Assembly: GCF_963921235.1 (NCBI RefSeq)
Contig: NC_086107.1
Span: forward strand, 110,052,001 to 110,116,000
Reading direction: 5' to 3'
DNA: 64,000 nucleotides
Origin: Mobula hypostoma
Lineage: Eukaryota
The notes under the pieces were generated by a model, which worked only from the letters and a program-made list of their open reading frames with translations, was not told the origin of the DNA and ran no database searches. Numbering within the stretch: position 1 is the stretch's first letter; each line of letters starts with the position of its first letter. This document shows positions 294 through 57,285 of the stretch, one piece after another. The position numbers and the translations under genes were made by a program.

Positions 294-329
294 AGTCAAC
301 GTTTCAGGCCGAGACCCTTCATCAGGACT
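294..329 (-). ncRNA. Minimal type-I hammerhead ribozyme motif (GUU triplet variant)
   Basis: Reverse complement AGTC-CTGATGA-AGGGTCTCGGCCT-GAAAC-GTT-GACT: CUGANGA and GAAA core boxes, stem I AGTC/GACT. Confidence 0.7.
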
Positions 330-1042
330 AAGTGAAGGAAGAGCTAGTAAGAGATTTGAAAGTGGGAGAGGGAGGGGGAGATCCGAAATGATAGGAGAAG
401 ACAGGAGGGGGAGGGATGGAGCCAAGAGCTGGACAGGTGACTGGCAAAAGGGATACAAGAGGATCATGGGACAAGAGGTCCGGGAAGAAAGACCAGGGGA
501 AGAACCCAGAGGATGGGCAAGGGGTATATTCAGGGACAGAGGGAGAAAAAGGAGAGTGAGAGAAAGAATGTGTGTATAAAAATAAATAACAGATGGGGTA
601 CGAGGGGGAGGTGGGGCATTAGCAGAAGTTAGAGAAGTCAATGTTCATGCCATCAGGTTGGAGGCTACCCAGACGGAGTATAAGGTGTTGTTCCTCCAAC
701 CTGAGTGTGGCTTCATCTTTACAGTAGAGGAGGCCGTGGATAGACATGTCAGAATGGGAATGGGATGTGGAATTAAAGTGTGTGGCCACTGGGAGATCCT
801 GCTTCCTCTGGCGGACAGAGCATAGGTGTTCAGCAAAGCGGTCTCCCAGTCTGCGTCGGGTCTCGCCAATATATAAAAGGCCACATCGGGAGCACCGGAC
901 GCAGTATATCACCCCAGCCGACTCATAGGTGAAATCACCTGTCCAGCTCTTGGCTCCATCCCTCCCCCTCCTGTCTTCTATCATTTTGGATCTCCCCCTC
1001 CCCCTCCAACTTTCAAATGTCTTACTCACTCTTCCTTCAGTT

Positions 1043-1078
1043 AGTCCTGACGAAGGGTCTCGGCCTGAAACGTCGACT
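1043..1078 (+). ncRNA. Minimal type-I hammerhead ribozyme motif
   Basis: AGTC-CTGACGA-AGGGTCTCGGCCT-GAAAC-GTC-GACT: core boxes, stems I and II, palindromic ACGT stem III; predicted cut 3' of C1074. Confidence 0.8.
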
Positions 1079-1275
1079 GTACCTCTTCCTAGAGATGCTG
1101 CCTGGCCTGCTGCATTCACCAGCAACTTTGATGTGTGTTGCTTGAATTTCCAGCATCTGCAGAATTCCTGTTGTTTGCGGCTTGGGGTTGACTTCTGAGA
1201 TCTGTGAAAAATTAGTGAGTCCCTTTTTTAAACCAGCGTCAGGGCACTCTATCTAATATTTAACCAGGAGGAAAT

Positions 1276-1639
1276 ATTAAAACGAAGTGTGTTTTAAATG
1301 TTCTGTGGAATATGTCTGGCACTCTTTATGGCAGTGTGTAGCAACAGTTACATCCTCTTCTTCCATGGTTTCCATGAGCTGGTGAGTTAACGGACTAAGT
1401 GTTGAACCTCTGTTTATCTTCTGATCCTTATGGTTCTTCCAGGAGTCAAAAAGTTGTGAGCAGTCTTTATTCTAACGATCGTACAAATAAACCTACAAAT
1501 ACTAAGCAAACTAAATAAAGAACTGAGGAAGGATGCTGAGAGGTGAATTCAAAGACAAAAGAATAAAGAAGCAAAGCAAAAGATGGTGCCTCTGAAAAAT
1601 CCATGACTTTTATAGATAAGAAACTTCTTAGATAATAAA
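1276..1639 (+). terminator. Candidate MPST polyadenylation signals
   Basis: ATTAAA at 1276-1281 followed by GT-rich sequence; AATAAA at 1486, 1514, 1562 and 1634. Which is used cannot be seen. Confidence 0.4.
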
Positions 1640-4690: not shown

Positions 4691-6619
4691 CAAGTCAGTT
4701 TTCTGGGCAGGGGAGATTCTAAATGTCCATCCACTGGCAAATGTGTACCACAGCTGTGGCTGCCTCCAGCTTCATGAATGGACTGAGATCAGAAACCCTT
4801 CCAGCTTCAGTTCAACTTGTACAGTGTAGCAGATCGAATGGTATTTCAGGCCAGAGATGCAGAGTCAGAATCAGGGTTAATATCACCGGCATATGTCATG
4901 AAACTTGTTGTTTTGCAGCAGCAGTACGATGAAATACATACTAATAAAAATCTATTAAAAGTAGTACAAAAAGAGGTAAAAATGCTGAAGTAGTGTTCAT
5001 GGGTTCAATGTCCATTCAGAAATCTGATGGCAGAGGGGAAGAAGCTGTTCCTGAAAAGTTGAGTGTGTGTCTTCAGGCTCCTGTACCTCCTCTCTGATGG
5101 TAGCAATGAGAAGAGGGCTTGTCCTGGGAGATGGGGGTCCTTAATGATGGATGCTGCCCGTTCAAGGCATCGCTTTTTGAAGGTATCCTCGATGCTGGAT
5201 TACACTGAGCCCTCCCACTTGTTGAAGTGAAACCTGACTCCTTCGAAAAACTTGAGACACGAGTGAAATCTGAAGCAATGCACAAAAGGCTGGAGGAACT
5301 CAGCAGGTCAGGCAGCATCAACAGCGGGAAATGTACGGTTGATGTTTTGGTCCTGATGAAAGTTTTTGCCTGTTGCTCCTTCAGAGTGACTGCTAGACAT
5401 AGGCTGGTGTTGTCTCAGGCTGTTTGCCGATCCTTGTGGACTCTGCAGAGTGCCCCTGTTCTCAGTTTCTCACGCTGGTCTAGTTGGATATTAAAGAAAT
5501 GTATTGGAGAAGGACAGGAATTATTATTTTAAAATTACATAAAATAAGCCTTTCCAGAAGAACTCCCTCAGCTTAAGGCTTTAATGACAACTTTTGTCCT
5601 GTTTTATTGTGATATCACTCTGGAGGAACATTGTATCATTTCTTAATGCATGCATGCATTTCTAAATGACAATAAACGAGGACTGAGTGTCCTCATAATC
5701 TAATCTAAAATCTAAAAACAGAGTGGAACTTTGCTGCTAATCTCCACGAAACTACCAATAATTCCTCAACAAGACATCCTGAAATTTTCGCAGTGATCCC
5801 CTCCCTGAGGTCTTCAGAATTGGTAATTTGATATAACTTTCACTTGTTTATATGCTTCTTCTGTAAAAATATTAAAACGTTACTCCTTGGGTGATGTCTA
5901 ACTGATTTTCTAACTGCCTTGAGATGTAATTAGTGCTGAACAATCTCTATGGCTCTGTAAAGTTATATTTCTGTTCAGCTGTCCAGAATAATTAAATAAA
6001 TATTATATATGTTATAACTTTTAAAAAATATTAGTTTAAAGTATTTGAGTTTTTAGAAACATGGTTACACAGTGTAGAAAACAGGCCCGATAATCCGTCT
6101 GAACCACATTGACTAAGTTGCCTGAATGACCTAATCAATTTGCATTTATTTATTTATTTATTGAGATACAGTGCGGAATAGGCCCTCTCCCCAGCAACTC
6201 CCAATTTAACCCGAGCCTAATCACGGGATGATTTACAATGACCAATTGTAAATCTACTAACCGGTACGTTTGTGGACTGTGGGAGGAAATCGGAGGACCG
6301 GGAGAAAACCCACCCATTCCACCGGCTCCTTACAGATGATGTCGGAATTGAACTCTGAACTCTGCCCCCCCAAAAAAAACAGCGTCACGCTAACCGCAAC
6401 GTTACCATGGCACCCCCATACACCTCCTAACCTGGGCTCCATGAACCCCGCGGTTAATGGTAATGTTAAAAAGTTTGGGATCCCAGCTCTAAACCTTTCC
6501 TACCCAAATGTCTTTTAAAAGTTGTTAATTGTACCCACATTTTCCAGTTTCTCTGGTAAACCTTCCCATATACCCGCCACCCTCTATGACAGGAGTTCCT
6601 CCAACTTTTTTATGCCATG

Positions 6620-8541: not shown

Positions 8542-8744
8542 CACAACACATATCTAAGTTGCTGGTGAACACAACAGGCCAGGCAGCATCTCTAGGAAGG
8601 GGTACAGTCGACGTTTCAGGCCGAGACCCTTCGTCAGGACTAACTGAAAGAAGAGCTAGTAAGAGATTTGAAAGTGGGAGGGGGAGATCTGAAATGATAG
8701 GAGAAAACAGGAGGGGGAGGGATGGAGCCAAGAGCTTTGTGTTT
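8542..8744 (-). mobile_element. Penelope terminal-repeat fragment with hammerhead motif at 8606-8641 (-)
   Basis: Same repeat as 235-441. Flanked by GCATTGTTGGTCA (8529-8541) and GCATTATTGGTCA (8745-8757), a TSD with one mismatch. Confidence 0.8.
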
Positions 8745-9594
8745 GCATTATTGGTCAAGCTGGTTTCCCTTGGCCTGGATTACTCTGTATGTCAATGGGA
8801 AAAATGTGACATCAAACAACCCAATCGCGGATTTATTCTCCATCAGATAACGGGCAACAACGGAGTAGGGCAGGATTTGATGGTTTTAATTTTGGACATA
8901 AAGCGCAATAATGAGCCCTACCAGCCCAGTGAGTCCATACCGCCCAGTTACACCCACGTGACCGAGTAACCCACCAACCCGTTCGTCTTTAGAATGTGGG
9001 AGGAAACTAGAGCACCCAGCCCTTAAGGCATGGGAGTAGAATGAGGCTATTCAACCCATCGAGTCTCCTCCGCCATTCCATCATGCCTGATCTACTATCC
9101 CTCTCAACTTCATGCTCCAGCCTTCTCCCCATAACGTTTAACACCCTTACTGATCGAGAACCTGCCAACCTCCATTTTAAACATACCCAATGACCCCACA
9201 GCCGTCTGTGGGACAACTGTGCCACGCCGGCCATGATACTAATGCTTTCTTACAACAACCTATGCAATGGACTATGTATAATGTGCATAGAAATTGTTCT
9301 GTGAAAGGGCCCGTGAACCCACCAGGGCAACACACACAAAATGCTGGAGGAACTCAGCAGGCCACACAGCATTCATGAAAATGAATAAACACTTTCGACA
9401 TTTTGGGCTGAGACCCTTCTTCAGGTCTTGAGCTGAAGTGGGGCGGGGGAGACAACAGAATAAAAAGCTGGGGGGAGGGGAAGGAGGACAAACTGGGAGG
9501 TGTTGGGTAAAGCCAGGTGAGTGGGAAAGGCATTGCAGTCTCAGAGGACAACCCACAGCAGGAGTTACACAGGGAATCGGAGAAGACTGAGAAG

Positions 9595-11687: not shown

Positions 11688-13140
11688 CAAACACGAGGAA
11701 ATCTGCAGATGCTGGAACTTCAAGCAACACACATAAAAGTTGCTGGTGAACGCAGCAGGCCAGGCAGCATCTCTAGGAAGAGGTACAGTCGACGTTTCGG
11801 GCCGAGACCCTTCGTCAGGACTAACTGAAAGAAGAGATAGTAAGAGATTTGAAAGTGGGAGGGGGAGGGGGAGGGGGAGATCCAAAATGACAGGAGAAGA
11901 CAGGAGGGGGAGGGATGGAGCCAAGAGCTGGACAGGTGATTGGCAAAAGGGATACGAGAGGATCATGGGACAGGAAGCCTAGGGAGAAAGAAAAGGGGGA
12001 GGGGGAAGCCCAGGGGATGGGCAAGGGGTATAGTGAGAAATAGGAGAGAGAGAAAAAGAATGTGTGCATATAAATAAATAAATAACGGATGGGGTACAAG
12101 GGGAAGGCGGGGCATTAGCGGAAGTTTCAGAAGTCAATGTTCATGCCATCAGGTTGGAGGCTACCCAGATGGAATATAAAGTGTTGTTCCTCCAACCTGA
12201 GTGTGGCTTAATCTTTACAGTAGAGGAGGCCTTGGATAGACATATCAGAATGGGAATGGGATGTGGAACCAAAATGCGTGGCCACTGGGAGATTCTGCTT
12301 TATCTGGCGGACAGAGCGTAGGTGTTCGGCGAAACAATCTCCCAGTCTGTGTCGGGTCCCGCCAATATATAGAAGGCCACATCCGGAGCACTGGACGCAA
12401 TATATCACCCCAGCCGACTCATAGGTGAAGTGTCGCCTCTCCTGGAAGGACTGTCTGGGGCCCTGAATGGTAGTGGGGGAGGAAGTGTAAGGGCATGTGT
12501 AGCACTTGTTCCGCTTACAAGGATAAGTGCCAGGAGGGAGATTGGTGGGGAGGGATGGGGGGGGAGACGGATGGACAAGGGAGTCACGTAGGGAGCAATC
12601 CCTGCAGAAAGCAGAGTTGGGGGAGGGAAAGATGTGCTTAGTGGTGGGATCCCGTTGGAGGTGGTGGAAGTTACAGAGAATTATATGTTGGACCCAGAGG
12701 CCGGTGGGGTGGTGGGTAAGGACAAGGGGAACCCTATTCCTAGTGGGGTGGCGGGAGGATGGAGTGAGAGCAGATATGCGTGAAATGGGGGAGATGTGTT
12801 TGAGAGCAGAGTTGATGGTGGAGGAAGGGAAGCCCCTTTCTTTAAAAAAAGGAGGACATCTCCTTCATCCTGGAATGAAAAGCCTCATCCTGAGAGCAGA
12901 TGCGGCGGAGACGGAGGAATTGCGAGAAGGGGATGGCATTTTTGCAAGAGACAGGGTGAGAAGAAGAATAGTCCAGATAGTTTGAGAGTCAGTGGGCTTA
13001 TAGTAGATATCAGTAGAAATGGACCAGGTAAACTTGAGGGCAGGGTGAAAGTTGGAGGGGGAGGAAGTTTGGAGGAAGTGGGAGGAGCCAAAGGAGAAAT
13101 TATTAAGAGTAAGAAACAGCTCCATGTGTACTTCTGCCAT
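11688..13140 (-). mobile_element. Penelope-like element, 5'-truncated and internally deleted (RT remnants, GIY-YIG, terminal repeat with hammerhead at 11787-11822)
   Basis: Minus-strand remnants ELFLTLNNFSF, LKFTWSIS, TDIYYKPTDS, LRLRRICSQD and IYCVQCSGCGLLYIG; ends in the terminal repeat and ...TTCCTCGTGTTTG tail. Confidence 0.85.
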
Positions 13141-13620
13141 CTCGCGTCTCTCAGACAAAGGCGCTGTTGTTCCGCCGCCACGGCAGGTGGCGCTGTGCTG
13201 GGAAGGGCAGCGGGAGCAGCCGCATTTCGGGCGCTTCTCGTCACCTAGATACCGAGGGCCCGAGGAGTTCGGCGTGGTCATTCGCGGCTCTGTTCCGATC
13301 GGACGCGGCACGATGTCGGCAGCGCTGGTCAGGAAGGGGCTCGATCTGATGAGCGAAGATGTAAGAGGTAACGGAGAAGGTTTAGTTCACGACCCGGCGC
13401 CTCGGCAGAGAAGCGGCGCGCCATAGGAGATCTCCCTGCCGGCTAGGCCTCCCCAACCTCCCGTCAGGGGCATTCGTCTCTATACCGGCCTCCCATCGTG
13501 AGGTAGATGAAGGGGGGGGTTGTTGCAGCGCCCCCCTATGGTGTGGAGCAGAGCCCCGACTCTAGCCTCCGACCACGAGGGGCGCTACGGGGCGCCGTGT
13601 AGCACTGCCTGGCTTCCAAG
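13141..13620 (+). promoter_or_regulatory. CpG island / RPS19BP1 promoter and first exon
   Basis: Abrupt GC- and CpG-rich island in CpG-poor surroundings, centred on the RPS19BP1 ATG. Confidence 0.75.
13313..13367 (+). CDS. RPS19BP1: RPS19BP1 (AROS, active regulator of SIRT1) coding exon 1 of 4
   Basis: MSAALVRKGLDLMSEDVR+G, resembling the AROS N-terminus MSAALLRRGLELL. Donor AG|GTAACG, phase 1, matches exon 2. Confidence 0.9.
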
Positions 13621-13999
13621 TACCAAAGTGAAGACATTAGTTAAAAGAGCTTTGTTTTGGGTGCCGTCCATATTTTATTACTACAGTACATTGAGGTAGT
13701 ATGGCCTCTGATTCTTTCAGACCCAGGCAATCTAGTTCTGTTCTACTCTCTTATATTATCCCACACGTCCTATAAGACAGAGGAGCAGAAATGAGGATTT
13801 TTTTTTAGAAAATGGTGAATCTGTGGAATTCATTGTTACAGGTAATTCGGTTGAGAGAGAGAGAATAAATCAGCCTTTCAGCCCTTCAAGTCTGCTTTGC
13901 CATTTCATCATTTGTAAACCCAGTTGTGCTTTTTCCTTGTAATCTTTGACCCCTTCTAACCAAGAACCTGTTAACCCCCACTTTGAGTTAGAATACAGA

Positions 14000-14575
14000 A
14001 CACAGAAACCTACAGCTCGTAACAGGCTCTTCGGCCCACAATGTTGTGCTGACCATGTAACCTGCTCTAGAAACTGCCTAGAATTTCCCTAGCACACAGC
14101 CCTCTTGCATAGACTTTCACCGTGGCTGTCGGCAGTGCATTCCACACACCCACCACCCTCTGTGAAAAACTTACCCCTGACATCCCCTCGGTACCTGTTT
14201 CCAAGCGCCTTAAAACTATGCCTCCTTAGGTTAGCCGTTTCAGCCCTGGGGAGAAGCCACATGATCAATGCCCCTCATCATCTCATACACCTCTATCAGG
14301 TCACCTCTCATCCTCCGTCACTCCAAGGAGAAAAGGCCAAGTTCACTCAACCTAGTCTCATAAGGTACACCCTCCAATCCAGTCAACATCCTTTTAAGTC
14401 TCCTCTGCACTGTCTCTATAGTATCCACATCCTTCCTGTAGTGAGGTGACCAGAACTCCATGAAAAGTCTGACCAAGGTCTTATATAGCTGTAACATTAC
14501 CTCACGGCTCTCGAACTCAGTAGCATGGTTGATGAATGTCAACATACCATACACCTCCTTAACAACACTGTCAAA
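14000..14575 (-). mobile_element. CR1 LINE 3' fragment, degraded
   Basis: LYKTLVR...EFWSPHYRKDVDTIETVQRR...LSELGLFSLE on the minus strand. Confidence 0.7.
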
Positions 14576-14684
14576 TTTATAATTCAACCATATACAGCCA
14601 AACAGAACAGCCTTCGCCGGGGCCGAGGTGGAAAACACAGTACGATAGTCATATGCAACATGAAACACATATAGCACGTATTAA

Positions 14685-14996
14685 ATTTAAGACATCCGTA
14701 AGTCTTGCGAGACCATGGATCTGTGCCTGGAAAGTCTTCACTCTCCAGGGTGCAGGCCTGGGCAAGGTTGTATGGAAGACCGGCAGTTGCCCATGCTGGC
14801 AAGTCTCCCCTCTCCACGACACCAATGTTGTCCAAGGGAAGGGCATTAGGGCCCATACAGCTTGGCACCAGTGTCGTCGCAGAGCAATGTGTGGTTAAGT
14901 GCCTTGCTCAAGAACACAACACGCTGCCTCGGCTGGGGCTTGAACTCACGACCTTCAGATCACTAGTCTAATGCTTTAACCACTTGGCCACGTGCC
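14685..14996 (-). mobile_element. tRNA/CORE-like SINE, same family as 6620-6924
   Basis: Reverse complement aligns along its whole length with 6620-6924; short direct repeat CACGTAT at 14675-14681 and 14997-15003. Confidence 0.75.
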
Positions 14997-15141
14997 CACG
15001 TATAAGATAGCAAGTAAGCATATGTCACACAAAATATACATAATATATAGTCCAATTACCTAAGTATCACATCCTGTAAATTGATGGTACGTGGGTGTTA
15101 TTGGCTGTTCTCAGCAGTCTGCAGGCAATGACTGCATGCAA

Positions 15142-15818
15142 GCAACATACATCAAAGTTGCTGGTGAACGCAGCAGGCCAAGCAGCATCTATAGGAAGAG
15201 GTGCAGTCGACGTTTCAGGCCGAGAATTAATTCCACGTCCCATTCCCATTCTGACATGTCTATCCACGGCCTCCTCTACTGTAAAGATGAAGCCACACTC
15301 AGGTTGGAGGAACAACACCTTATATTCCGTCTGGGTAGCCTCCATCCTGATGGCATGAACATCGACTTCTCTAACTTCTGCTAAGGCCCCACCTCCCCCT
15401 CGTACCCCATCTGTTACTCATTTTTATGCACACATTCTTTCTCTCACTCTCCTTTTTCTCCCTCTGTCCCTCTGAATATACCTCTTGCCCATCCTCTGGG
15501 TCACCCCCCCCCGTCTTTCTTCCCGGACCTCCTGTCCCATGATCCTCTCGTATCCCCTTTTGCCTATCACCTGTCCAGCTCTCGGCTCTATCCCTCCCCC
15601 TCCTGTCTTCTCCTATCATTTTGCATCTCCCCCTCCCCCTCCAGCTTTCAAATCCCTTACTCACTCTTCCTTCAGTTAGTCCTGACGAAGGGTCTCGGCC
15701 TGAAACGTCGACTGCACCTCTTCCTATAGATGCTGCTTGGCCTGCTGCGTTCACCAGCAACTTTGATGTGTGTTGCTTGAATTTCCAGCATCTGCAGAAT
15801 TCCTGTTGTTTGCGTTAA
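15142..15818 (+). mobile_element. Penelope-like fragment with inverted 5' terminal-repeat piece, in RPS19BP1 intron 1
   Basis: 15142-15225 is an inverted partial repeat. 15226-15815 carries the GIY-YIG C-terminus (NSTSHSHSDMSIHGLL...DFSNFC), terminal repeat and tail. 15-bp TSD AATGACTGCATGCAA at 15127-15141 and 15819-15833. Confidence 0.9.
15678..15713 (+). ncRNA. Minimal type-I hammerhead ribozyme motif
   Basis: AGTC-CTGACGA-AGGGTCTCGGCCT-GAAAC-GTC-GACT; predicted cut 3' of C15709. Confidence 0.8.
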
Positions 15819-16822
15819 AATGACTGCATGCAACCCAGCTTGTCATTGCACTGATCGAACACTGGGGGGCAGCACTGATCTGAAGTGCTAGGCCCCACAC
15901 CAGCATGGACGCTGCTGAGGGCACTTCCGAGATTGCTGCTACAGGCAAGCCTGCAGCTTAAGGCCTAGTCCGTACAGCCCCCACCGCCTGCCTTGCAATA
16001 AGCAAGGGAAACGGACTTGCAGCATTTTGCATTACCAATCTCCACCAGGGTCTTGCGATGGCAAGAAAAACATCCAAGACAATTGCTCGCTGTTAGATTG
16101 CATACCAGCTTCTGGCACTAATTCACATGCCTTCCTGTAGCTGGCAGTAACGCAGTCCGCACCAAGTCCAGCTCCTCCACCAACGAGCAGCTGATGGGGT
16201 ACCTGAAGTTCTTACTACCCAGCATTGTCTTGTGATCATAAAAAAGAATAAAGAAGCTTTACATTGGCACCAGAGAGGCTGCTGTGTCTAAACACGCCGC
16301 CACTAAACCCTTACATTCAGTTTTGTACCGAACTATACTGCTGTCTGCATATTTACTGCCTTTAATCATTCACAAATTATGATTTTTTTTTCTGGACTCT
16401 GTTGAACTATTTTGATGTTTCCCTTTGTTGTTCTACATCGTATCCAAGATCTACTTTCAGTTCCTCGGAATCAGCCTTTGTTCAATCTATTAGGATTTGA
16501 ATACGTTCTATGACTTGGCTTCCACAGTCAAATGTAGTAATGAATTCCACAGATTCACCATTCTCTGACTAAAGGAATTCCTCCTCATCTCTGTTCCAAA
16601 GGGACCTCTGGTCCTAGACTCTCCCATCCTCCGCGGATCCACTCTTATCTCGGGCTTTCAATGAGGTCACCCTCATTCTTCTAAACTCCAGCAAGGTCAA
16701 GCCCATAGCCATCAAACAATACTCATGCATACCCAGGATCATTCTCATAAAGCTCCTCTGGGCCTTATCCTTTTGGACAAGTCAGTAGTGACCATCCCCT
16801 CCTCCTCATGCTTCACTTCAAG

Positions 16823-16978
16823 GGCAAGGCAAGAAGACGAATCGAGGACACTCGTCAGATGCTGGCTGTTTGCTCAATACAAGCAAGAAAGGGAGAAGGA
16901 AGGAACTGGAGAGGATTCGCAGGCAACGGGAAAAGAACAAGGCTACTGTCAAAGGGAAGGTAGTTAAATCAGCACTGG
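16823..16978 (+). CDS. RPS19BP1: RPS19BP1 coding exon 2 of 4
   Basis: Pyrimidine tract then TTCAAG| acceptor. Reads (G)QGKKTNRGHSSDAGCLLNTSKKGRRKELERIRRQREKNKATVKGKVVKSAL (AROS KGKVPKSAL motif). Donor G|GTAAGT. Confidence 0.9.
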
Positions 16979-17777
16979 GTAAGTGATAGGTTAATGTTCC
17001 TGAATCCCTGTATTGCTCTGTGCAAAGAAATTTCATAGCTGTAAGTGTTTGGCTGTACAAGTGATACAAGGGCCTGTTTTTGGTTGCATCAGATACATTG
17101 CCCCTATGCTAGAATGCTTCTTTGATGAAATGGCCACAAAATAGTCACGAGGACTAATTTTCATAATTTTAAGGTGATTGGAGGGAAGTATGGATGGGGG
17201 GGATGTCAGAGGTAGGTATTTTCACAGAGAGTGCTGGGTGTGTGGAACATGCTGCCAGGGGTGGTGTTAGAGGCAGATACATTAGGGACATTTGAGCCAC
17301 ATGGATGATAGAAAAACGGAGGGATATGGAGGAGGGATGGTTAAGAGGTCGGCACAACATTGTGTCCTGAAGGGCCTGTACTGTGCTGTGGCGTTCCTTG
17401 TCCTATTTATAGCTTGGGTTATCTCCCGGTACCACCGGCCCTTGGATCGACTAGGTTGTTGAGCGCTGATGCCACTATGCCACCAGCCGGCAAGGTGGTT
17501 CACTAAAGTCCTTCAAAAGAGAACATCCTTTCCCAGTCTGGTCTGTATGTCACCCTTCTTGAGGGTCTCGTAAGTGTCACTTACAGGCAACTCCCCCTGG
17601 GCACTTGGGGATGAGCAGCGATTGCTGACCTTGGAAGCTGGAGTCACAGCAGGGAAGCAGGCGATTTGGCCCAGCACGTTCACGTCAACCAGTGGGCACC
17701 CATCTGTATCCATCCCATCTTCCAGCGCCCAGCCGACTGAAGTGCGGATCTAGACACTTGTTAAACGATTGTAAGAC

Positions 17778-18450
17778 ATTCGATTAGATTCAACTTTATT
17801 GTCATTGTGCCGAGTACAGATACAAAGCCAATGAAATGCAGTTAGCATCTGACCAGAAATGCAAAGAATAGTGTTATTTACAAAATAACTGTGAATAGAA
17901 GAAGTGCTACAGCACACAAATATGAAAGTACTGAGACAGTACAATATGGGTGCAATACTGTTTTGCGCTGTGATGTGAGGTTCAGCAGGGTCACAGCCTC
18001 AGGGAAGAAGCTCTTCCTGTGCCTGCTGGTGCGGGAGCGGAGGCTCCTGTAGCGCCTACTGGATGGGAGGAGAGTAAAAAGTCCATGGTTAGGGTGAGAT
18101 GCATCCTTGATAATGCTTTTTGCCTTGCCCAGGCAGCGTTTATGGTAGATGTTCTCAATGGTGGGCAACTGGGTGCTGATAATCCGCCGGGCAGTTTTCA
18201 CCACATGCTGGAGTGCTTTGCGGTCTGATACAGGACAATTGCCATACCACACTGAGATACAGTTGGTGACTATGCTCTCAATGGTACAGCGGTAAAAGTC
18301 CGTCAGTATCCTGGGACAAAGGTGAGCTTTCTTGATGCTCCGCAGGAAATAAAGGGACTGTTGCACCTTTTTGATCAGGATGGAGGAGTTCAGGGACCAG
18401 GTGAGATCCTCGGAAATGTGGACACCAAGGAATTTAAAGCTTGGTACACG
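17778..18450 (-). mobile_element. Rex1/Babar-type LINE 3' end (second subfamily)
   Basis: SFKFLGVHISEDLTWS...FYRCTIESI...KSFFPEAVTLLN; AATAAA followed by a short repeat tail. Confidence 0.75.
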
Positions 18451-19059
18451 TAGGACTAGAACTAGGCTCTTCGGTGAAATGCTTTCCCTACACTCTCTGG
18501 CAATATATTCCAAGTACTCCCCACCCTCTGGGTGAAGAAATTCCCCCCTCCCACACCCAGATCCCCCCCTAAATCTCCTGCCCCTCACTCTATATTTAAG
18601 TCTTCTTGTTTTATCTGCCTCTGGTAATGGGACAAGAATCCTGCAGTCTTCCCCATAATCAGAGTCAGGTTTAATATCATTGGCATATGTTGTGAAATTT
18701 ATGGCAGCAGTACCGTCCAATACATTATATTAAAAACTATAAATTACAATAAGATATATATAAAAAAAGAAAATTAAATTAAGTAGGTAGTGCAAAAGGA
18801 GAGGGAGAAAATTCTGAGGTAGTGTTCATGGGTTCATGGTCCATTCAGAAATCAGATGGTAGAGGGGAAGAAGCTGTTCAGGAGACACTGAGTGTGCGTC
18901 TTCAGGCTCTTGTACCCTCTCCCTGATGATAGCAATAAGACGGGGGTCCTTAATGATAGATGCCGCCTTTTTGAGGCATCGCCTTTTGAAAATGTCCTTG
19001 ATGCTGGGGAGGATAGTGCCCATGATCGAGTTGGCTGAGTTTTACAACTGTAGAACATT

Positions 19060-19620
19060 AGAAAGTTTTTGACAACAGGCCATTCGGCCCAACGAAACTT
19101 GCCAAATTCCTATTCACATCGTGAGTTGAAATACTGTAACTATGGAGTTTAGATTTGAAAGTCTCTAAGGTAGTACAGGTAGTTTGTTCCATGTGTCCAC
19201 AAGTCGCTGTGTAAAGAAATGCTTCCTGATGTTAATCTGAAACCTCCCTTTAAACCAGTCTCCACCTATGGCCCCGTGTCCTTGTGGATGGATTAATTTT
19301 GAAGTAGCAGCTGGCATCCACTTCTAACATGTCTCCTCTCATTCTGTGACTACTTTGGCTAAAAAGATTTAACTCTTTCATTTTTCTACATAGCTCATAC
19401 CCTGTAGACCTGGAATGAGTAGTCGCCCTTCTCTGAACTCTCTCCAGTGCCTTCATGTCCCTCACAAAATATGGAGACCAGAATTGTACACAATACTCAC
19501 AAGCACAGTTTAAGGAGAACGTCTCTAGACTTGAACTCCCCTGAGTGCTTTATGTAGCCCAACATCCTGTTGGCCTTCCTAATCACTTCTGTGCATTGTC
19601 TAGATGTTGATAGTGACGAG
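19060..19620 (-). mobile_element. CR1 LINE 3' fragment, degraded
   Basis: ALERVQRRAT...RMRGDMLEV...TRTRGHRWRL on the minus strand. Confidence 0.65.
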
Positions 19621-20294
19621 TCTACTCAAGATGAAGTGTCTCAGCCCGAAACATCAACTGTTTATTCTCTTCCGTAGATATTGCCAGGCCTACAAGTTCC
19701 TCCGGGATCCTGTGTGTGTTCCTTACAGGCAGCGGCAGGAAATGAACTGGGGTCACTGGTACTGTAAAGCATTGTGCTAACCGCTGCATTGCAGTGCCGC
19801 CCTCTTAACCTGCTCCACTCCAGCGGAAACAGACCCACCCTCTCCCCGTTACAGAAACGTTCCATCCCAGGCAGTGTTCTTTGGAATTCTCTCCCAACAC
19901 TATGGCATATTCCCTTAACAAAAAAAAAATGCCATCACACTTCAATAGAAGCAGATGGTATTATATTCAGACCAATGTGTCGGGTTGAAGTGACGCCCAG
20001 GAGCTTGGAACTGGCTCAGTCCTGTGGGAAACAAAGGTACTGGTTCAGCAGGTGTGCTGTTTGCCTTTGCACTGTAGTAACCTGCCCAGCCCTATTGCCG
20101 CCGGCAGGTTTCTGTTCCAAGTAGCAGGAAGCTCTTCTCGAGTTTCATACGGGTTCGGTACTAGGTAACCGGCAGCTGTGAAGTTGTGTTCTAAATAAGG
20201 AGCCAGTGCTTCACCCAGTGCAAAGCTCTACACAGACCATATTTCTTTCTGCCTCAATAAAGCAGTCAGCATATTTTTATTTAGAGAAACTCTA

Positions 20295-33924: not shown

Positions 33925-34120
33925 AAAATTCTCCGCAGATGCTGGGGTCAAAGCAACACTCACAACACGCTGGAGGAACTCAGCAGGTTGGGCAGCATCC
34001 GTGGAAACGATCAGTCAATGTTTCGGGCCGGAACCCTTCGTCAGGACTGAAGAGGGAAAGGGCAGAGGCCCTATAAAGAGGGTGGGAAGGAGAAGGCTGG
34101 TAGGTTCCAGGTGAAAAATC
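33925..34120 (-). mobile_element. Older Penelope terminal-repeat copy with hammerhead-like motif at 34013-34048
   Basis: Reverse complement AGTCCTGACGAAGGGTTCCGGCCCGAAACATTGACT followed by GATGCTGCCCAACCTGCTGAGTTCCTCCAGC. Confidence 0.65.
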
Positions 34121-41571: not shown

Positions 41572-41844
41572 CAACAGGAATTCTGCAGATGCTGGAAATT
41601 CAAGCAACATACATCAAAGTTGCTGGTGAATGCAGCAGGCCAAGCAGCATCTATAGGAAGAGGCACAGTCGACGTTTCAGGCCGAGACCCTTTGTCAGGA
41701 CTAACTGAAGGAAGAGTGTCGACGTTTCAGGCCGAGACCCTTCGTCAGTTAGTCCTGACGAAGGGTCTCGGCCTGAAACGTCGACTGCGCCTCTTCCTAT
41801 AGATGCTGCTTGGCCTGCTGCGTTCACCAGCAACTTTGATGTAT
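41572..41844. mobile_element. Palindromic Penelope terminal-repeat insertion carrying three hammerhead motifs
   Basis: Motifs at 41667-41702 (-, core mutated to CTGACAA), 41718-41748 (-) and 41751-41786 (+). 14-bp TSD GTAACACATGCAAA at 41558-41571 and 41845-41858. Nested in an older related repeat. Confidence 0.85.
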
Positions 41845-42792
41845 GTAACACATGCAAAATACTGGTACTCAGCAGGTCAGGCAGCTTCAGTGGAGAGGGA
41901 TAAAGAGTCAAGGTTTCAGGCTGAGACCCTTCATGAGTCCTGTGTGTGTGTGTGTGTTTGCAACCTGGAGTCCATGGACCCTTCGCTTAATGGTGAGGGT
42001 CCACAGCATTAAAAAGATTGGGAACCTCTGATAGGGTGTGATTAAGAATGGTAAAGGGATGCTTGTGTGCATCTCAACACTGTACTTGTGTTGGCCAGAA
42101 TGCCTACTTTGAATTCCCTATAGATAATTCTTCGCTGTGTGTGTGTGTGTGTGTAAATAAGGCATCATGCTTCCCTCAACTCCTCCACTGGTTTCTTGGC
42201 CAGCTTCCACCATGCATTCTTGTGAACTTTATCTGATCTAAAATTCTTGAGATACCTGTCTGACAACTCCCACCAAAACCTGTTGGTCCATTGCTCAGTG
42301 ACACATTATCTTGTCATCCAACATAACCTTGAATTTAAGATTCCAAGAATTTGTTGGTTTGCGATGTGCCGCGTTGTATGAGGTGGGTGATCACAGTCTT
42401 TCCATGCTTCAGCGCACATTTATTATCAAAGAATGTGTAAATTATAAAGCCTGAAATTTGCTTTCTCACAGGTAGCCGCAAAGCAAGAAACCTGAAAGAG
42501 CCCATTTAATAAAAAATGAAAGACCAACACCCAACACGCAGAGAAAGGGGGAAAAAAAACACAAATCATGCAAACAACTGAAGCCAGCAACAACATTCTG
42601 AAGCAAGTTAAGTCCTCAGGTCCGAACCACAGAGTGGGCCCTAAGCCTCGCTTATCAGTTCATCATATCAGCAGGCATGGAGCACAGCAGCCGGGGCAGT
42701 CTTCATAGCCTCAACACCACGGAGACGAGTGACTCTTGTGGAAAGCAAGTGAAATCAGCTCTCGCCTCAGATCCCAACAACCTGTCTTATCT

Positions 42793-43303
42793 ATTGGAGG
42801 AACAACACCTTATATTCCGTCTGGGTAGCCTCCAACCTGATGGCATGAACATTGACTTCTCAAACTTCTGCTAATGTCCCACCTCCCCCTCGTACCCCAT
42901 CCGTTATTTATTCATATACACACATTCTTTTTCATTCTCTCCTTTTTCTCCCTCTGTCCCTCTGACTATACCCCTTGCCCATCCTCTGGGTTCCCCCCCT
43001 CCCCCTTTTCCTTCTCCCTGGGCCTCCTGTCCCATGATCCTCTCATATCCCTTTTGCCAATCACCTGTCCAGCTCTTGGCTCCATCCCTCCCCCTCCTGT
43101 CTTCTATCATTTTGGATCTCCTGCTCCCCCTCCCACTTTCAAATCTCTTACTATCTCTTCTTTCAGTTAGTCCTGACGAAGGGTCTCGGCCCGAAACGTC
43201 GACTGTACCTCTTCCTAGAGATGCTGCCTGGCCTGCTGCGTTCACCAGCAACTTTTATGTGTGTTGCTTGAAATTCCAGCATCTGCAGGTTTCCTCGTGT
43301 TTG
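42793..43303 (+). mobile_element. Penelope-like 3' fragment with hammerhead at 43169-43204 (+)
   Basis: LEEQHLIFRLGSLQPDGMNIDFSNFC, terminal repeat and tail; 10-bp TSD TGTCTTATCT at 42783-42792 and 43304-43313. Confidence 0.85.
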
Positions 43304-47544: not shown

Positions 47545-49792
47545 GAGGCCAAGAGTCAATCTTATGGTACAATAGGAGATCCATTCAAAAGTCTGATAAC
47601 AGCGGGATAGAAGCTGTCCTTGATCCTGCTGGAATGCGTTCTCAGGTTTTTGTACCTTCTGCCTGACGGGAGAGAATGGTGGGGAGTATATTGACTGGCA
47701 GCATCACAGCCTGGCATGGAAACACCTTGGACAGAAAATCCAACAAAAAATAGTGGATACAGCCCAGTCCATCAGAGATTGAGTCCTCCCCACCACTGAG
47801 CACGTCTACACAGAGTGTTGTCGCAGGAAGGCAGCATCCACCATCAAGAGCCCCCACACCCAGGACATGCCCTTTCCTCACTGCTGCCATCAGGACGTGA
47901 GTGAAGGAGCCTCGGGGTTCACACCGCCAGGTTCAGGAACGGTTACTACCCCTCAACCATCAGGCTCTTAAACCAAAGAGGACATCTTCACCCAATTTCA
48001 CTTGTTCCATCACTGAAATACTCCCACAGTCTATGGACTCACTTCCAAGGACTCTTCATCTCATGTTTTGAATATTTGTTGCTAATTTATTTATTATTAA
48101 TTTCTTTCTTCATTTGCACAATTTATTGTCTTTTGAACACCCAATTGGTGCAATCTTTCACTGATTCTATTATGGTTATTGGATTTATCGAGTATCCGCA
48201 CAAGAAAAAATAATCTCATGGTTGTATATGATGACGTGTATGTACTTTGATAATAAATTTACTTTGAATTTTGAACTTTGTACTTTAAACTATGTATTAT
48301 GGTTGAGGGAGCATGCAGTCCGAGATGGGATACAGCCAACTAGCTGGTTTTTGGATTATTTAATTATTTCTACCCAGTTGGACATGAAGCAGTTAATTGC
48401 TTAAACTTATACAAGACGTAGATGAGGCCACATTTGGAATATTGTCTTCAGTTTTGATCACTCTGCTGTAGGAAAGACAAATGTATAAAGATGTATATTT
48501 ATAGAGATGCATAAAGTCATGAGGAGCATAGATTGGGTGAATGCACATGGTCTTTTTCTCAGGGCTGGGGAATCAGTAAATAAAGGGCATCAACATGAGA
48601 GAGTCTGCAGATGCTGGAAATCCAGAGCAACACACACACACACACAAAATGCTGGAGGAACTCAGCAGGCCAGGCAGCATCTATGGAAATGAATAAACAG
48701 CTGGCATTTTGGGCCGAGACTCTTCATCAGGGCTGGAAAGGAAGGGGGAAGGGCCAAAATAAAAGGGTTGGGGGGAGGCCAAGCTAGAAGGCGAAGGCGG
48801 GTGGGTGGGAAAGGTAAAGGGCTGGAGAAGAAGGAATCCGATGGAAAAGGAGAGTGAACCATGGGAGAAGGGGAGGGAGTAAGTTCACCAGGGATAGGCA
48901 GTTGAATAGCAGAGGCCAGAATGGGAAATGGAAAAAGGGTAGAGGAAAAAAATCACCAGAAGGAGAAATTGATATTCATGCCATCAGGTTGGAGGCTATC
49001 TAGATTGCTATGATTAATTGTAGAAGGTATAGATTTTGAGTGAGATAGGAGAGATTGAATAGGAACTTGAGCGAAAACCTTTTCCACCACAGGGTGGTCG
49101 GCATATGGAGTGAGCTGTTGGAGCAAGGGGTGAAGGCAAGTACATTAACAATATTTGAGAGGGGTTTGGAGGGGTACATGGATGGGAAAGGTTGAGCAGA
49201 ATATGGGCCAATCACAGTCAAACGGGACTAGTTTAGATTAGAACCACAAGAGGTTCTGCCGATGCTGGAAATCCAGAGCGACCGACACACACAGAAAGGG
49301 AGTCAAAACCCTAGATGAGAATTTTGCTTGGCTTGCACGAGTTAGGCTGCCTGGCTAAAATTGCTTGTCATGTTTTCATCTGTGTATGTTGCTGATAAAG
49401 CAGTTCAGATCTGATGAGTCATGCTTTGCAAGTTACCACCTTCTGACCACACCTCACTAAAACTTACCATCAGGAACAGGCTGACTGCACACATTGAACT
49501 GAAGAGAACAGGCTATCCGGGAATATTGAACCATACAATGAGAAAGGATTACACAATAATCTTAGTAACACTCATATACATAAGGCAGCACCTGTGCAAA
49601 GAGAAACAAGGTTAATGTGTTGGATTCAAGACTCTCCTAATTCCAATAATTTTGCTCACCCCCTTCCCTCTTCTTCTATTCTGGCCTCTTACATCTTCTC
49701 CTCACCTGCCTATCATCTCCCCGGTGCCCTCCTCCTTCCCTTTCTCCTCACCTAGCAGATTCCTTCCTCTCCAGCCCTTTACCTTTCCCACA

Positions 49793-50165: not shown

Positions 50166-51110
50166 GTCACCCATCTGGCTTCACCTATCACCTTCCAGCT
50201 GGTCCTCCTCTCCTTCCCCCACCTTTTTTTAACGGCGTTTCCCCCTTCCTTTCCAGACCTGATAAAGGGTCTCAGACATTGATATTCCTTTTCACAGATG
50301 CTGCTTGACCTGGTGAAATCCTCCAGCAATTTGTGTGCGCTCCTCTGCATCTCCAGTGTCTGCAGGATTTCTTGTCTGTATGATTTGCTGCTCCACTGAG
50401 AAATCTCTTTGTGGAATGGCTACCCTGGAGAAGTTTAAATTTGCTCTTCAACAGGAGTTCAGAGAGACTCTCTCTCACTGCCCCCTCTCTGTGATCTCTG
50501 CCGCCCTCCAAATCTTTGATCATGTGCTCACCCAAACTCGCACCTCCCAGCTTGTACTCCTTCCCCTCCTCCCCATCTTCTTAATCTGGCTTCTTCCCCC
50601 TTCCTTTTGAGTCCTGTTGAAGGGTCTCGGCCCAAAACATTGACTGTTCATTCCTTTCCACAGATGCTGTCTGACCTGCTGAGTTCCTCCAGCATTTTGT
50701 GTTCGCTATTTTGAATTTCTAGCATCTGCAGAGTGCCTTGTGTTTATAATATTTTCTATTTAGTCCAGAATTCGAATACCTGCTGTTTTTTAAATTTAAA
50801 ACAGATTATTTTATTTAGAGAGATAGCATGGAATAGGCCCTTCTGGCCCTTTCAACCTTGCCACCAGAAACCCCCTATTTAACCCTAGCCTAATCAGTTT
50901 AGAATGATCAATTAACTTACAGACCAGTACGTCTTTGAACCATGGGAGGATGCTGGAGGACATGGAGGAAAACCCATGCATTCCCTGGACGTACAGAGAC
51001 TCCTTACAGAGGACACCGGGAATGAACTAGGAACTCCGATGCCCCGAGTTGTAATACCATTGCGCTAACCACTACTGTGGCGCTCAGCAAACTTTTTATT
51101 AATAATCTTG

Positions 51111-53605: not shown

Positions 53606-54685
53606 AAAAAAGTAGTGAGATAGTGTCCATTCAGAAATTGGATGGCAGAGGGGAAGAAGCTGTTCCTGAATCGCTGAGTGTGTGCCTTCAGGCTTCTGCA
53701 CCTCCTTCCTGAGTGGCAGCAATGGGAACAAGGCACGTTCTGGGTGGTGGGACCCCTTAATAATGGATGCCTCCCTTTTGAGGCATCGTTCCTTGAAGAT
53801 GTCCTGGATACTACAGAGGTTAGTGCCCATGACGGAGCTGACTAAGTTTATAGTCAACTTATGCAGCTTAGTCAACTCTGCAGCTTATTTCGATCCTGTG
53901 CAGTAGCCCCCCACCACATCCCCCCCCACCCCACCACCATACCAGACGGTGATGCAGCCAGTTAGAATGCTCACCACAGTACACCTGTAGGAATTTGCAA
54001 GAGACTCACTTTATTTATCGCATGTACATCGAAACAGTGAAATGGGCCGTTTGCCTCAACAGCGAGTGTGCTGGGATAGATTGCAAATTAATTATGGTAC
54101 AGCAAGAGCATACTGGAAATAACAGGTAATTCTCAGGTCGGCAGCGTAGCTGTGCGGAGAATCCTCGAAGGATTATATGGTCTACTCCTGTTTCTCGTAT
54201 TTTTATATTTAGAAGTTGCATTTCACTCCAAGTGCTGTTGTGTAGGAAGTATACAAGATACCAAGAGCGTAAGCAACACTTTAGCATAGCAGTACATGGC
54301 ATGCAATGCCCACTTCAACGGGAAACGCTCAATGGGGACAACGTTGGAAATAGCGATTATGTCTCCTTTTAGCAGAAATGTGGGCTGATGGTCAGGCACA
54401 GGAGCAGGTATCTCACTTTTCCAATGCTCGATGGCCACAGTATAGGGGATGGCCGCTGGGAGCAGGGCTTGGGACCCCAGGCCCACTTAAGGAAGTAGAA
54501 AGGTCTTGTTTGTAAAACCGTGGTGGATCTGGTGCATCAGAGGAGAATCTGACCTTGTATTCCTAGAAGGATTTCCCAAAAAACAGTTCAGGTGAACAGT
54601 AACTATGACGTTATGAATGACATTATTGCTGTTTGCCCAGTGCCTCTGAGGATAGGCATGGCCTGTGAAAGAATGCATGCACTTC

Positions 54686-55552
54686 CGTTACATACCTCAT
54701 GGATATCTTGTGACTGTCTTATGGGGATGATGTAATGGTCTTGCAGAGGTCACATGATGTAATTTTCCCGCCGATGTGAGGTCACGTGATGACCTGTTCT
54801 CACCAGGTATATAAGTGTAGACCCCTGGTGACGCAGTTGGTTTTCCAGTTAGAACGTTAGCCAGAGACTCTGCTCTGCTGCGTATTTGCCTTATGACGCA
54901 GTTTCGATTTAAAATGGAGTTTTACATTCTATTGTAAGGTACAAAAGTGCTGGACCGGCAGTTTAACCAATTTCTGCCAGGTTTGTTGATGTATCTTTTC
55001 AGTAGTATTGGAGGGTGAAGACGGGAACCTGAAGGAGTCGTTCGACGATTGAAAGTATCGACCATTATTGAATTGGTTCAAGAAAGAGTGATCTGCATGA
55101 GATAGCCTCTGCTAAAAGTGGCAGAAAGGGCTGTGCAGGACCTAGTATCTAGAGGAAAAAGGTCAGTGCCTTTAAACCGTTTTACTTCCGTCGTTGTGAG
55201 TCCTGCGGACAAGGCAGGATCCGGCTGGGATTGGCGTGACGTCGTGTCTTCGAGGAATTCTTTACTAAAGGGAAGTCTCTCCTGATTGACTGTATAAATC
55301 TCTTGGACTTTCGAATTTACCATTCTAAGAACTGTGTTTGAATTTACCGCTTTAAGAACTGTTTTTGCATTTATCGCTTTAAGAACCAGTACTGAGTGGC
55401 GGTTTGTTAAATGGCCACGTAGCAGTTTACTTCCAGTTAAGATTTTCGTTTGTTTATTTTTTTATATTGAGCAGAGTTGAATAAATGTTTGATTGTTTTT
55501 ATAAAACCTGACTCAATTCAATTCTATTTTCATTGTTGCCCGTCACATGACA
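54686..55552 (+). mobile_element. Probable solo LTR (Gypsy/ERV-like)
   Basis: 4-bp TSD CTTC at 54682-54685 and 55553-55556; ends (C)GTTAC...GACA; TATATAAG near 54808; AATAAA at 55480; CpG-retaining and non-coding. Confidence 0.6.
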
Positions 55553-56775
55553 CTTCAAGTTCAGTTTGTCTGCTCTTCTGCTAGACCATGTTGAGTGCTT
55601 GATGTTCCATGTCCTATTTTTCGGGTTGAGCCATGGAATTGATTTTGCAACTGCTGATAATTTCCTGTGCAAAAGGGACCGAGAAACAGGAAGGTTTCAT
55701 TGTCAACAATCAGCATGCTGGCAAAAGTGAGACAGAGGCTACGGTAGCGTGCTGGTTAGTACAACGATATCACAACTCGGGCCGTTGGATTTCGCGGTTC
55801 AATCCCGCCGTCCCCTGTAAGGAAGTTTATATGTTCTTTCTGTGTGTTCCCTCTGGGTGCTCTGGTTTCCTCCCACAGTCCAAAGACGTACAAGTTAGTA
55901 GGTTAATTGGTCATTGTGAATTGTCCTGTGATTAGGCTACAGTTAAACAGGTGGGTTCCTGGATGGCACGGTTCAAGGACCTGATTCACATTGTATCTCT
56001 AGATAAAATAGAAAATAAAATCAATGATGTCAGGCAGCATCTGTAGAGGGGAATGAATAGCCAGCCTTTTGGGTCATGTCCCTTCATCAGGCCATTATTC
56101 TCATGCCCACCTGAGTTCGGCTAATATACAAAATGGTTTTATGTGACTATCTTAACCATTGAACAACTACGTGAAATTGAAGACTTATAAGACAAACATG
56201 CATTTCTCACCAGCAGGTAGTAAAATACTTTCAACTTCAGTTGTTTGCCTTCATTTTTGGCTTGGAGATGAAATTATCTGCGCTTTGTCAACTTGTGAAC
56301 GAGGGAAAGTAAAATGTTATAAAGCATTCACCAATCTCTGTGGGACTCAGTCTATGGCCTTGTATCGTCGTTGATCAACAGGACTCTAAAAACTCACACT
56401 CTTTCCTCAACCACACTTTATTTTGCTTGTGCACAAGAAGAACAGTGTGGCCCCTTTCACCCCACTGTTCTGAAGTCTGAGTGGAGAAATGTTATTTTTA
56501 TACAGGATTGACAAGCAGTTACAGATGTTGACTGTTTGGTAAACTGTAAAGCAACACACACAAAATGATGGAGGAACTCAGCAGGTCAGGCAGCATCTAT
56601 AGAAATGAATAAACAGTTAACATTTCGGGCTGAGACCCTTCTTCAGGACTGAAATGGAAGGGGTAAGATGCCAGAATAAGAGGTAGTGGGGAGGGGAAAG
56701 AGGCCAGCTAGAAGGTGATAGAACTATGTATGTTTGAATTCCTTACTTGCAAGATCAATTGTTATTCACAATAGA

Positions 56776-57285
56776 GGCCTCCTCTACTGTAAAGATGAAG
56801 CCACACTCAGGTTGGAGGAACAACACCTTATATTCCGTCTGGGTAGCCTCCAACCTGATAGCATGAACATTGACTTCCCAAACTTCCGCTAATGCCCCAC
56901 CTCCCCCCGTACACCATCCATTATTTATTTATATACACACATTCTTTTTCTTTCTCTCCTTTTTCTCCCTCTATCCCTCTCACTATACCCCTTGCCCATC
57001 CTCTGGGCTTCACCCCTCCCCCTTTCTTTCTCCCTGGATCTCCTGTCCCATGATCCTCTCATATCCCTTTTGACAATCAACTGTCCAGCTCTTGGCTCCA
57101 TCCCTCCCCCTCCTGTCTTCTCCTATCATTTTGGATCTCCCTCTCCCCCTCCAACTTTCAAATCCCTTACTCACTCTTCCTTCAGTTAGTCCTGATGAAG
57201 GGTCTCAGCCTGAAACGTCGACTGCACCTCTTCCTAGAGATGTTGCCTGGCCTGCTGCATTCACCAGCAACTTTTATGTGTGTTA
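56776..57285 (+). mobile_element. Penelope-like 3' fragment with hammerhead at 57188-57223 (+)
   Basis: GLLYCKDEATLRLEEQHL remnant plus terminal repeat; AGTC-CTGATGA-AGGGTCTCAGCCT-GAAAC-GTC-GACT. Confidence 0.8.

Follow-up and report, generated by a model that had tools for sequence, protein, structure and literature searches.

Within the 64-kb window of Mobula hypostoma DNA analyzed here (64,000 nt in full), a 36-nt motif of near-constant sequence recurs between the ORF end and the 3' end of a retroelement and is conserved across subfamilies of this element. We consider it probable, on sequence grounds, that a massively amplified Neptune-type Penelope-like retrotransposon (PLE) carries this motif in its pseudo-LTR (pLTR) as a minimal type-I hammerhead and, jointly with this identification, that the hammerhead would be selected in master elements and carried elsewhere as a neutral passenger. 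Motifs of this kind have been known since 2014, and only the density found here stands out.

Motif copies and hammerhead anatomy

An earlier note on this DNA had listed nine full motifs and nine degenerate copies. A strict 36-nt pattern matched exactly at eight of the nine full sites (294-, 1043+, 8606-, 11787-, 15678+, 41751+, 43169+, and 57188+), and the ninth, 41718(-), keeps its core and 3' arm intact with an inversion junction in place of the 5' stem-I arm. All nine degenerate copies were recovered through a 25-nt core with 1–6 mismatches, and an additional degenerate core, absent from that list, was detected at 56066(-). Overall, 19 core hits (≤6 mismatches) were obtained in the window vs 0.1 expected from 20 shuffles, which rules out chance matches, and a profile built from 16 copies placed 28 of 35 rows below E = 0.01, with no shuffled or reversed control scoring better than E = 0.11. 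An assembly artefact as the source of the motifs was likewise rejected. Rfam covariance models run on the window gave no match at gathering score, with no hammerhead family among the 14 at E ≤ 10, and the hammerhead assignment thus rests on motif anatomy and literature. No exact copy of the motif turned up among viral or metagenome contigs or in genomes of prokaryotes.

The motif is laid out as a stem-I arm (AGUC), the core CUGAYGA, an extra A, stem II (GGGU-CUCG-GCCY), GAAA, ACGU, C17, and a second arm (GACU), with the self-complementary ACGU occupying the place of stem III. The minimal type-I hammerhead with a palindromic, loop-less stem III proposed in the earlier note is supported by this anatomy, which matches that of minimal hammerheads (min-HHRs) of metazoan PLEs, as described in text parts of Cervera and De la Pena 2014 (PMC4209133). 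Likenesses include type-I topology, a 4–5 bp stem I, an extra nucleotide before 10.1, a G10.1–C11.1 pair, a palindromic 15.2–16.2, the lack of a loop III, and a location in pLTRs, mostly as dispersed single truncated copies. Unlike the schistosome min-HHRs of the same source, in which stem II has 7–8 bp, stem II here has 4 bp, and copies here are near-identical whereas those published are highly variable. Elasmobranchs are not named in the text parts or in one supplement table of PMC4209133, and no paper on hammerheads and Penelope in cartilaginous fish was found in our literature search; Lunse et al. 2017 may list examples.

ACGU and the extra A (before 10.1) occur in all young copies, and, among 13 distinct rows, 6 have GC and 7 have GU at the 10.1–11.1 pair. 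For stems I and II, 91.5% of 117 cells pair vs 14–43% in slid registers; covariation was limited to one of nine pairs changed on both sides, a score reached by 68 of 500 shuffles in sequences that represent a single family. The core, in the type-I order CUGANGA ... GAAA ... UH, is intact with GUC in 7 of 27 aligned pLTR pieces, i.e., 1043..1078 (+), 8606..8641 (-; in a solo truncated pLTR at about 8546–8740), 11787..11822 (-; G10.1–C11.1 form), 15678..15713 (+; sense to a host gene, with cleavage predicted after C17 at 15709), 41751..41786 (+), 43169..43204 (+), and 57188..57223 (+). Other copies include 294..329 (-), with an intact core and a GUU triplet (C17 to U at a CpG), 41667..41702 (-), with G8 to A, and the armless core at 41718..41748 (-). 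The older subfamily is represented by decayed copies at 9393..9428 (-; G12 to A), 19624..19659 (+; sense, in intron 2 of RPS19BP1), 41906..41941 (-), 48699..48734 (-; G12 to A), and 50610..50645 (+; A6 to U, G12 to A), and by 56615..56650 (-), in which the core is intact and the closing pair of stem I is broken. The copy at 31342..31377 (+) is strongly decayed, the newly found core lies in a further decayed copy at 56059..56094 (-), and a third-type pLTR carries a hammerhead at 34013..34048 (-) with an intact core, a lost ACGU palindrome, and an AUU triplet.

Insertion structures and host element

The nine listed motifs correspond to seven insertions. At five sites, 294(-), 11787(-), 15678(+), 43169(+), and 57188(+), the motif follows GIY-YIG ORF remnants downstream, in the same orientation, as the earlier note had stated for every attached ORF; this does not extend to 1043(+), which lies upstream of its own insertion's ORF and in the opposite orientation. 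The latter (230..1178, mixed strands, 13-bp TSD at 217 and 1179) includes an inverted pLTR with tail (933–1178, +), then the GIY-YIG ORF end and a tailless pLTR (-). Its ORF remnant (625..933, -) matches Pfam PF01541 with E 3.3e-5 and P0003 at 81%, and PF01541 was above cutoff at 622–1227. The longest copy (11690..13122, -) comprises an RT remnant interrupted by internal deletions and stops, a thumb, a C-x4-C-x2-C linker, GIY-YIG, and a tailed pLTR, with RT, thumb, and EN remnants in order at 13122–12118, RT preceding a C-terminal GIY-YIG. In intron 1 of RPS19BP1, a mixed-strand insertion (15143..15815; 15-bp TSD at 15127 and 15819) joins an inverted core-less pLTR (15143–15225, -), an ORF end (15226–15378, +), and a tailed pLTR. 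A fold-back insertion with three motifs (41572..41844, mixed strands; 14-bp TSD at 41558 and 41845) lies inside the tail of the older pLTR that carries the 41906..41941 copy. Truncated copies were found at 42794..43303 (+), with ORF end (42794–42868), pLTR, hammerhead, tail, and a 10-bp TSD at 42783 and 43304, and at 56773..57283 (+), with ORF end (56773–56889), pLTR, and hammerhead but no tail. Profile matches also revealed pLTR relics at 5264..5352 (-) and at 7254, 11552, 24771, 29568, 45152, and 50207.

TSDs of 10–15 bp were identified in four of seven young insertions, and all three inverted insertions have a tail at one end only. Every copy in the window is 5'-truncated, with 5' ends that all differ, five of them reaching into ORF sequence. 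Self-comparison revealed no direct tandem pLTR-ORF-pLTR (competent copy) within the 64-kb window, in which no master element was found either. No ORF start was found in the tail, which did not match three full-length relatives. Insertions beginning at the cut site were absent from six young 5' ends or junctions, nine relics being too decayed to call, and no cut-site peak was seen among the run-contig loose ends listed.

The ORF remnants display 83% identity to a Mobula protein and 36% to ~890-aa RT-GIY-YIG proteins. The C-x4-C-x2-C linker, within 12208–12864, is shared by 64 of 78 full-length relatives, and a CX2-5CxxC linker between RT and EN is given as a mark of Neptune/Nematis in the parts of PMC8557442 drawn on here. 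This suggests a Neptune-type clade, though Neptune and Nematis cannot be told apart by the linker alone. Consistent likenesses to Neptune-clade EN+ PLEs, as described in parts of Craig et al. 2021 (PMC8557442) and Arkhipova et al. 2013 (PMC3846280), include the C-terminal GIY-YIG with its linker, 5' truncation, an inverted 5' pLTR, a 30–40 bp tail at one end, and TSDs; unlike these, no full-length or partial-tandem copy occurs in the window.

Conservation across subfamilies and decay of inserted copies

Between the young and older subfamily majorities, the hammerhead agrees at 31 of 36 positions vs 62 of 111 columns in the flanks (p = 0.001), with all five hammerhead differences at CpG positions, and a second subfamily comparison also found the hammerhead better kept than its flanks (p = 4e-5). 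For the older and third-type subfamilies, the values were 28/36 and 76/113, respectively (p = 0.30). The higher conservation expected under the earlier note was thus found, for the hammerhead block as a whole, in two of three pairwise comparisons, with a flank contrast that is inflated by two of six older copies having a non-pLTR upstream flank. In contigs of all four runs, likeness to the other subfamily, as read from loose ends, ends at 15678 and 15714, i.e., the edges of stem I; figures from run contigs reflect the variant and loose-end rows listed, in which an unlisted position is not necessarily invariant. A hammerhead block common to subfamilies with differing flanks fits selection in master elements.

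Inserted copies decay at a neutral rate, like their neighbors and dead repeats, and mostly at CpG sites including G12. Across seven older copies, the core shows non-CpG changes at 5/63, compared with 11/119 elsewhere, and CpG changes amount to 22/63. In contigs of the two largest runs, G12>A was found at 9.9% and 8.5% among the variants listed, with other CpG sites at 6–15%.

Mechanism, copy density, and alternative roles

We propose that selection on the hammerhead would act only in rare master elements, in which its cleavage would free the element RNA from a precursor of tandem or read-through type, either through a double hammerhead formed in cis or with the protein encoded by the element acting as chaperone. 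Reverse transcription would begin past the cut site, about 65–70 or 105 nt further downstream, and would in most cases abort early, so that nearly every insertion would carry the hammerhead as a passenger. Such passengers would be mostly silent, with an inactive rod as their default fold, and would decay neutrally, mainly at CpG. The Poseidon element PAc of Anolis, as presented in parts of Frangieh et al. 2024 (PMC11167929), likewise has a hammerhead in its pLTR and, downstream of the cut site, two preferred 3' ends separated by the length of a tail, but belongs to another clade, has an ORF starting inside the hammerhead, and starts RT in an AC-rich loop, vs ends in GU-rich tracts here.

Folding models, with energies that take no account of tertiary contacts, favor inactive structures for both monomer and dimer RNA. 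The predicted monomer rod, which pairs core GAYG with CGUC and is the ground state in all eight young copies folded, reaches -11.0 vs -7.0 kcal/mol for the open hammerhead, and the predicted inactive dimer duplex -30.3 vs -11.5 kcal/mol for the double hammerhead, a gap of about 19 kcal/mol. This gap weighs against a large working population in which dispersed copies in host RNAs would form dimers, whether in trans or between neighbors in cis, and cleave measurably, a scenario we regard as improbable. It is favored by the seven intact copies in 64 kb (109 per Mb, Poisson 44–225), co-oriented intact pairs 1.4 and 3.2 kb apart, the dimer cleavage reported for the minimal hammerhead class in parts of PMC4209133, and lower CpG decay (G12>A at 1.9% and 3.1% among the variants listed) in contigs of two presumed-RNA runs from other organisms. 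However, even tethered dimers cleave poorly in vitro according to the same source, selection on the core, whether for or against it, is not seen in older copies, and, in one case, an intact RPS19BP1 (AROS; 13313..29409, +; four coding exons from 13313, 16822, 25165, and 29275; 90–100% to P0103; Pfam AROS) carries the intact hammerhead 15678(+) in its intron 1, in sense orientation. The very large ribozyme population claimed earlier is therefore supported as a copy number but not as a working population, the copies being 5'-truncated, neutrally decaying, and prone to inactive folds, with one intact in an intron; the claimed abundance of partners for trans-dimerisation appears weak given these pairings, this intronic copy, and a tested relative, PAc, that cleaves only with its protein (PMC11167929, in part). 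If the window is typical, the genome may possibly hold 10^5 intact copies, exceeding ten- to a hundredfold the numbers given in parts of PMC4209133 (about 4,000 per genome in coelacanth and 9,000 in Xenopus), from which the density here already stands far apart. Such a scale makes in vivo PLE hammerhead cutting, and its weight for element and host, testable by counting alone. It is distinctly improbable, in our view, that ~10^5 latent intact hammerheads, many in sense in introns, persist as silent rods until a partner copy or the element protein switches them on and host pre-mRNAs are cut; were this true, element derepression would cut host pre-mRNAs genome-wide, as a conditional ribozyme load on the transcriptome, and a strand-biased loss of intact copies from genes would be expected.

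Since parts of the downstream tail are conserved too, the block may instead be kept as a protein-binding signal, i.e., a hammerhead-derived rod next to the RT start region that no longer cuts and is recognized by an element protein. The rod being the predicted ground state would suit this role, as would the U at 11.1 that replaces the canonical G10.1–C11.1 pair in most young copies, and hammerhead activity was dispensable for in vitro insertion of the anole element, for which core mutants had no effect and no RNA-seq ends were reported at the cut site in the parts of PMC11167929 considered. We nonetheless find this rather unlikely: the young subfamily keeps every catalytic position, non-CpG core positions are common to the older subfamily, and cleavage, with C3/G8 rescue, does occur in the anole relative (PMC11167929, in part). 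Far more remote is a non-autonomous retrozyme or SINE-like family spreading via small circular RNAs. Non-LTR retrozymes, as covered in parts of PMC7229834 and bioRxiv 10.64898/2026.07.22.740005, share type-I hammerheads and very high copy numbers (up to 120,000 copies in axolotl) and are dimer-dependent in vertebrates; most copies in the window are short, and PLE-pLTR-derived tandem retrozymes, including one chondrichthyan, are reported in the latter source. A retrozyme array was, however, rejected, as self-comparison of the window revealed no head-to-tail tandem units each with a complete hammerhead; in addition, the 5' ends all differ, five of them lying in ORF sequence, and the inverted-plus-tail architecture is the one seen in ordinary PLE insertions. 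Whereas retrozymes consist of non-coding units in tandem arrays, the copies described here are dispersed, ORF-linked truncated ends.

Hammerheads in Penelope-like pseudo-LTRs

The recurrent 36-nt motif that an earlier note had assigned to minimal type-I hammerheads (min-HHRs) of Penelope-like elements (PLEs) carries every feature listed for metazoan min-HHRs in PMC4209133. The pattern given there was exact at 8 of 9 sites, while 41718(-) retained the core and 3′ arm and lacked the 5′ stem-I arm. A 25-position core scan (≤6 mismatches) yielded 19 matches in the window versus 0.1 in 20 shuffles, recovering all nine previously listed degenerate sites and adding one at 56066. A profile built from 16 copies detected 28 pieces at E < 0.01 among the 35 matches listed, whereas the lowest value among shuffled and reversed controls was E 0.11; no Rfam hammerhead family matched the window, at gathering score or at E ≤ 10. 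PLE-derived sequence makes up ~10% of the window. Core, GUC triplet, and both stems were intact in 7 of 27 aligned pseudo-LTR (pLTR) pieces, all seven from the young subfamily, one of three pLTR kinds found here alongside the older subfamily and the 34013 type. Stem partners could pair in 91.5% of cells, and covariation in the stems was not above shuffles.

This kind of PLE hammerhead is already known. In the literature examined, of incomplete coverage, no published description from cartilaginous fish was found; a 2026 preprint reports PLE-derived retrozymes from one chondrichthyan (bioRxiv 10.64898/2026.07.22.740005).

Conservation across subfamilies and decay of inserted copies

The earlier note held that a core no better kept than its flanks across subfamily consensuses would refute its hammerhead reading, and this comparison was made as far as the window subfamilies allowed. 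Between the young subfamily and the older majority (built from 6 copies, 2 of them without an upstream pLTR), 31/36 hammerhead positions and 62/111 flanking positions were identical (p = 0.001), with all five hammerhead differences at CpG positions. Young and 34013-type elements gave a similar picture (31/36 versus 54/112, p = 4e-5), and the difference was not significant between older and 34013-type elements (28/36 versus 76/113, p = 0.30). In contigs from four public runs (27,122, 17,155, 5,348, and 6,710 records compared), likeness to the other subfamily started at 15678 and stopped at 15714, i.e., at both stem I edges. Taken together, these sequence comparisons indicate that the hammerhead block is kept constant from one master lineage to another.

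Once inserted, copies showed no sign of selection, either in older-copy changes or in run-contig variants. Scored against the 11787 motif, seven older copies displayed non-CpG changes at 5/63 core positions versus 11/119 elsewhere, CpG changes at 22/63, and downstream flank differences at 36/326. Among the variants listed for the two largest runs, G12>A reached 9.9% and 8.5%, and other CpG sites 6–15%. Since the motif contains up to five CpGs, including at core and cut-site positions G8, G12, and C17, methylation-type decay would quickly disable it.

Insertion structure, folding, and probable ribozyme role

As proposed earlier, ORF remnants lie upstream of and co-oriented with the motif, in five cases. 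The longest, 13122-12118 (-), combines RT fragments that carry deletions and stops with a C-x4-C-x2-C linker and a GIY-YIG domain. It shares 36% identity with RT-GIY-YIG proteins of ~890 aa, 64/78 of which have the linker too; this linker type marks Neptune and Nematis (PMC8557442). A Mobula protein matches the element ORF at 83% identity. Clean internal deletions in the RT remnant at 13050-13122 (-), where residues 59-121 of the ray protein model P0003 and some 19 others are missing, suggest a deleted derivative or template jumps. P0003 and P0004, public ray gene models bearing host-gene names, consist largely of the ORF of this PLE and are probably annotation chimeras or exonisation.

Target-site duplications (13, 15, 14, and 10 bp) flank 4 of 7 young insertions. 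From their positions, 294(-) and 1043(+) form a single insertion event, as do 41667(-), 41718(-), and 41751(+), whose insertion target was the tail of an older copy, 41906(-). In this second event (41558-41941 region; 14-bp duplication), a young fold-back PLE piece entered the TG-rich tail of the older pLTR, and its inversion joint uses a short inverted match between bases just 5′ of stem I and the core start. Elements end 64–72 or about 105 nt beyond the predicted cut, inverted insertions carrying the longer form at one end only (3/3), and run-contig ends, among those listed, fall at the same places (15773-5, 15804, 15811-15). This inverted-pLTR-plus-tail pattern has been described for PLEs in PMC3846280 and PMC8557442, and in the anole element (PAc of Anolis) the tail reflects two internal RT starts (PMC11167929). 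A predicted stem-loop 3′ of the hammerhead (15730-15797 (+) and equivalents), partly conserved between subfamilies, extends across the nearer of the two element ends, which makes it a candidate RT-initiation signal. No pLTR-ORF-pLTR tandem occurs within the window.

Nearest-neighbour folding, which omits tertiary contacts, favored a monomer rod pairing the core with the cleavage-site strand (-11.0 versus -7.0 kcal/mol for the open form) and, for two molecules, an inactive duplex (-30.3 versus -11.5 for the double hammerhead). These predicted folds agree with published min-HHRs, whose monomers are uncleaved and dimers cleave at low level (PMC4209133). For the anole element, PMC11167929 describes cleavage as protein-dependent, yet dispensable for insertion in vitro, with RNA-seq ends absent at the cut site. 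The hammerhead likely processes tandem RNA of a master element, in cis or protein-assisted, and dispersed copies would be passengers because reverse transcription starts just 3′ of it.

The earlier note envisaged a very large ribozyme population in which partner RNAs for trans-dimerisation would be abundant. Intact copies number 7 in 64 kb, or 109 per Mb (Poisson 44–225), and with batoid genomes of 2.2–4.0 Gb (bioRxiv 10.64898/2026.10.27.761883) this extrapolates to roughly 10^5 to 9x10^5 per genome, which may be too high as it derives from one density-flagged window. Published counts are about 4,000 hammerheads in coelacanth and 9,000 in Xenopus (PMC4209133); for retrozymes, axolotl reaches as many as 120,000 copies (PMC7229834). 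A working trans population is a weak explanation: intact co-oriented copies do lie only 1.4 and 3.2 kb apart, but the intact 15678(+) copy occupies intron 1 of RPS19BP1, an intact host gene, in sense orientation, though this is a single case.

Host genes and other repeats

The four RPS19BP1 exons are 90–100% identical to the Hypanus protein, and matches to named proteins assign the window to a batoid. The longest PLE copy (11690-13600 region) stops about 190 bp 5′ of the RPS19BP1 start codon, in head-to-head arrangement with that gene and next to GC-rich sequence, where a bidirectional promoter could transcribe the intact 11787(-) hammerhead. A host bZIP exon at 37744-38559 (-), presumably ATF4-like, is convergent with RPS19BP1. 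A twister-ribozyme-like stretch at 52648-52702 (-) scored far under the gathering score (Rfam twister-P1, 28.3 bits, E 0.062), its 14-nt core occurring once exactly in the window and once with 2 mismatches, at 54464; it may be what is left of the 5′ end of a retroelement of RTE type. Two 300-bp repeats with a tRNA-like head (14690-14992 (-) and 6628-6923 (+); 87% identical) are probable tRNA-derived SINEs. Finally, a long LINE remnant at 21064-24420 (-) has 756 aa open with endonuclease and RT domains, and part of a GDSL-esterase-like ORF1 lies ahead of it.
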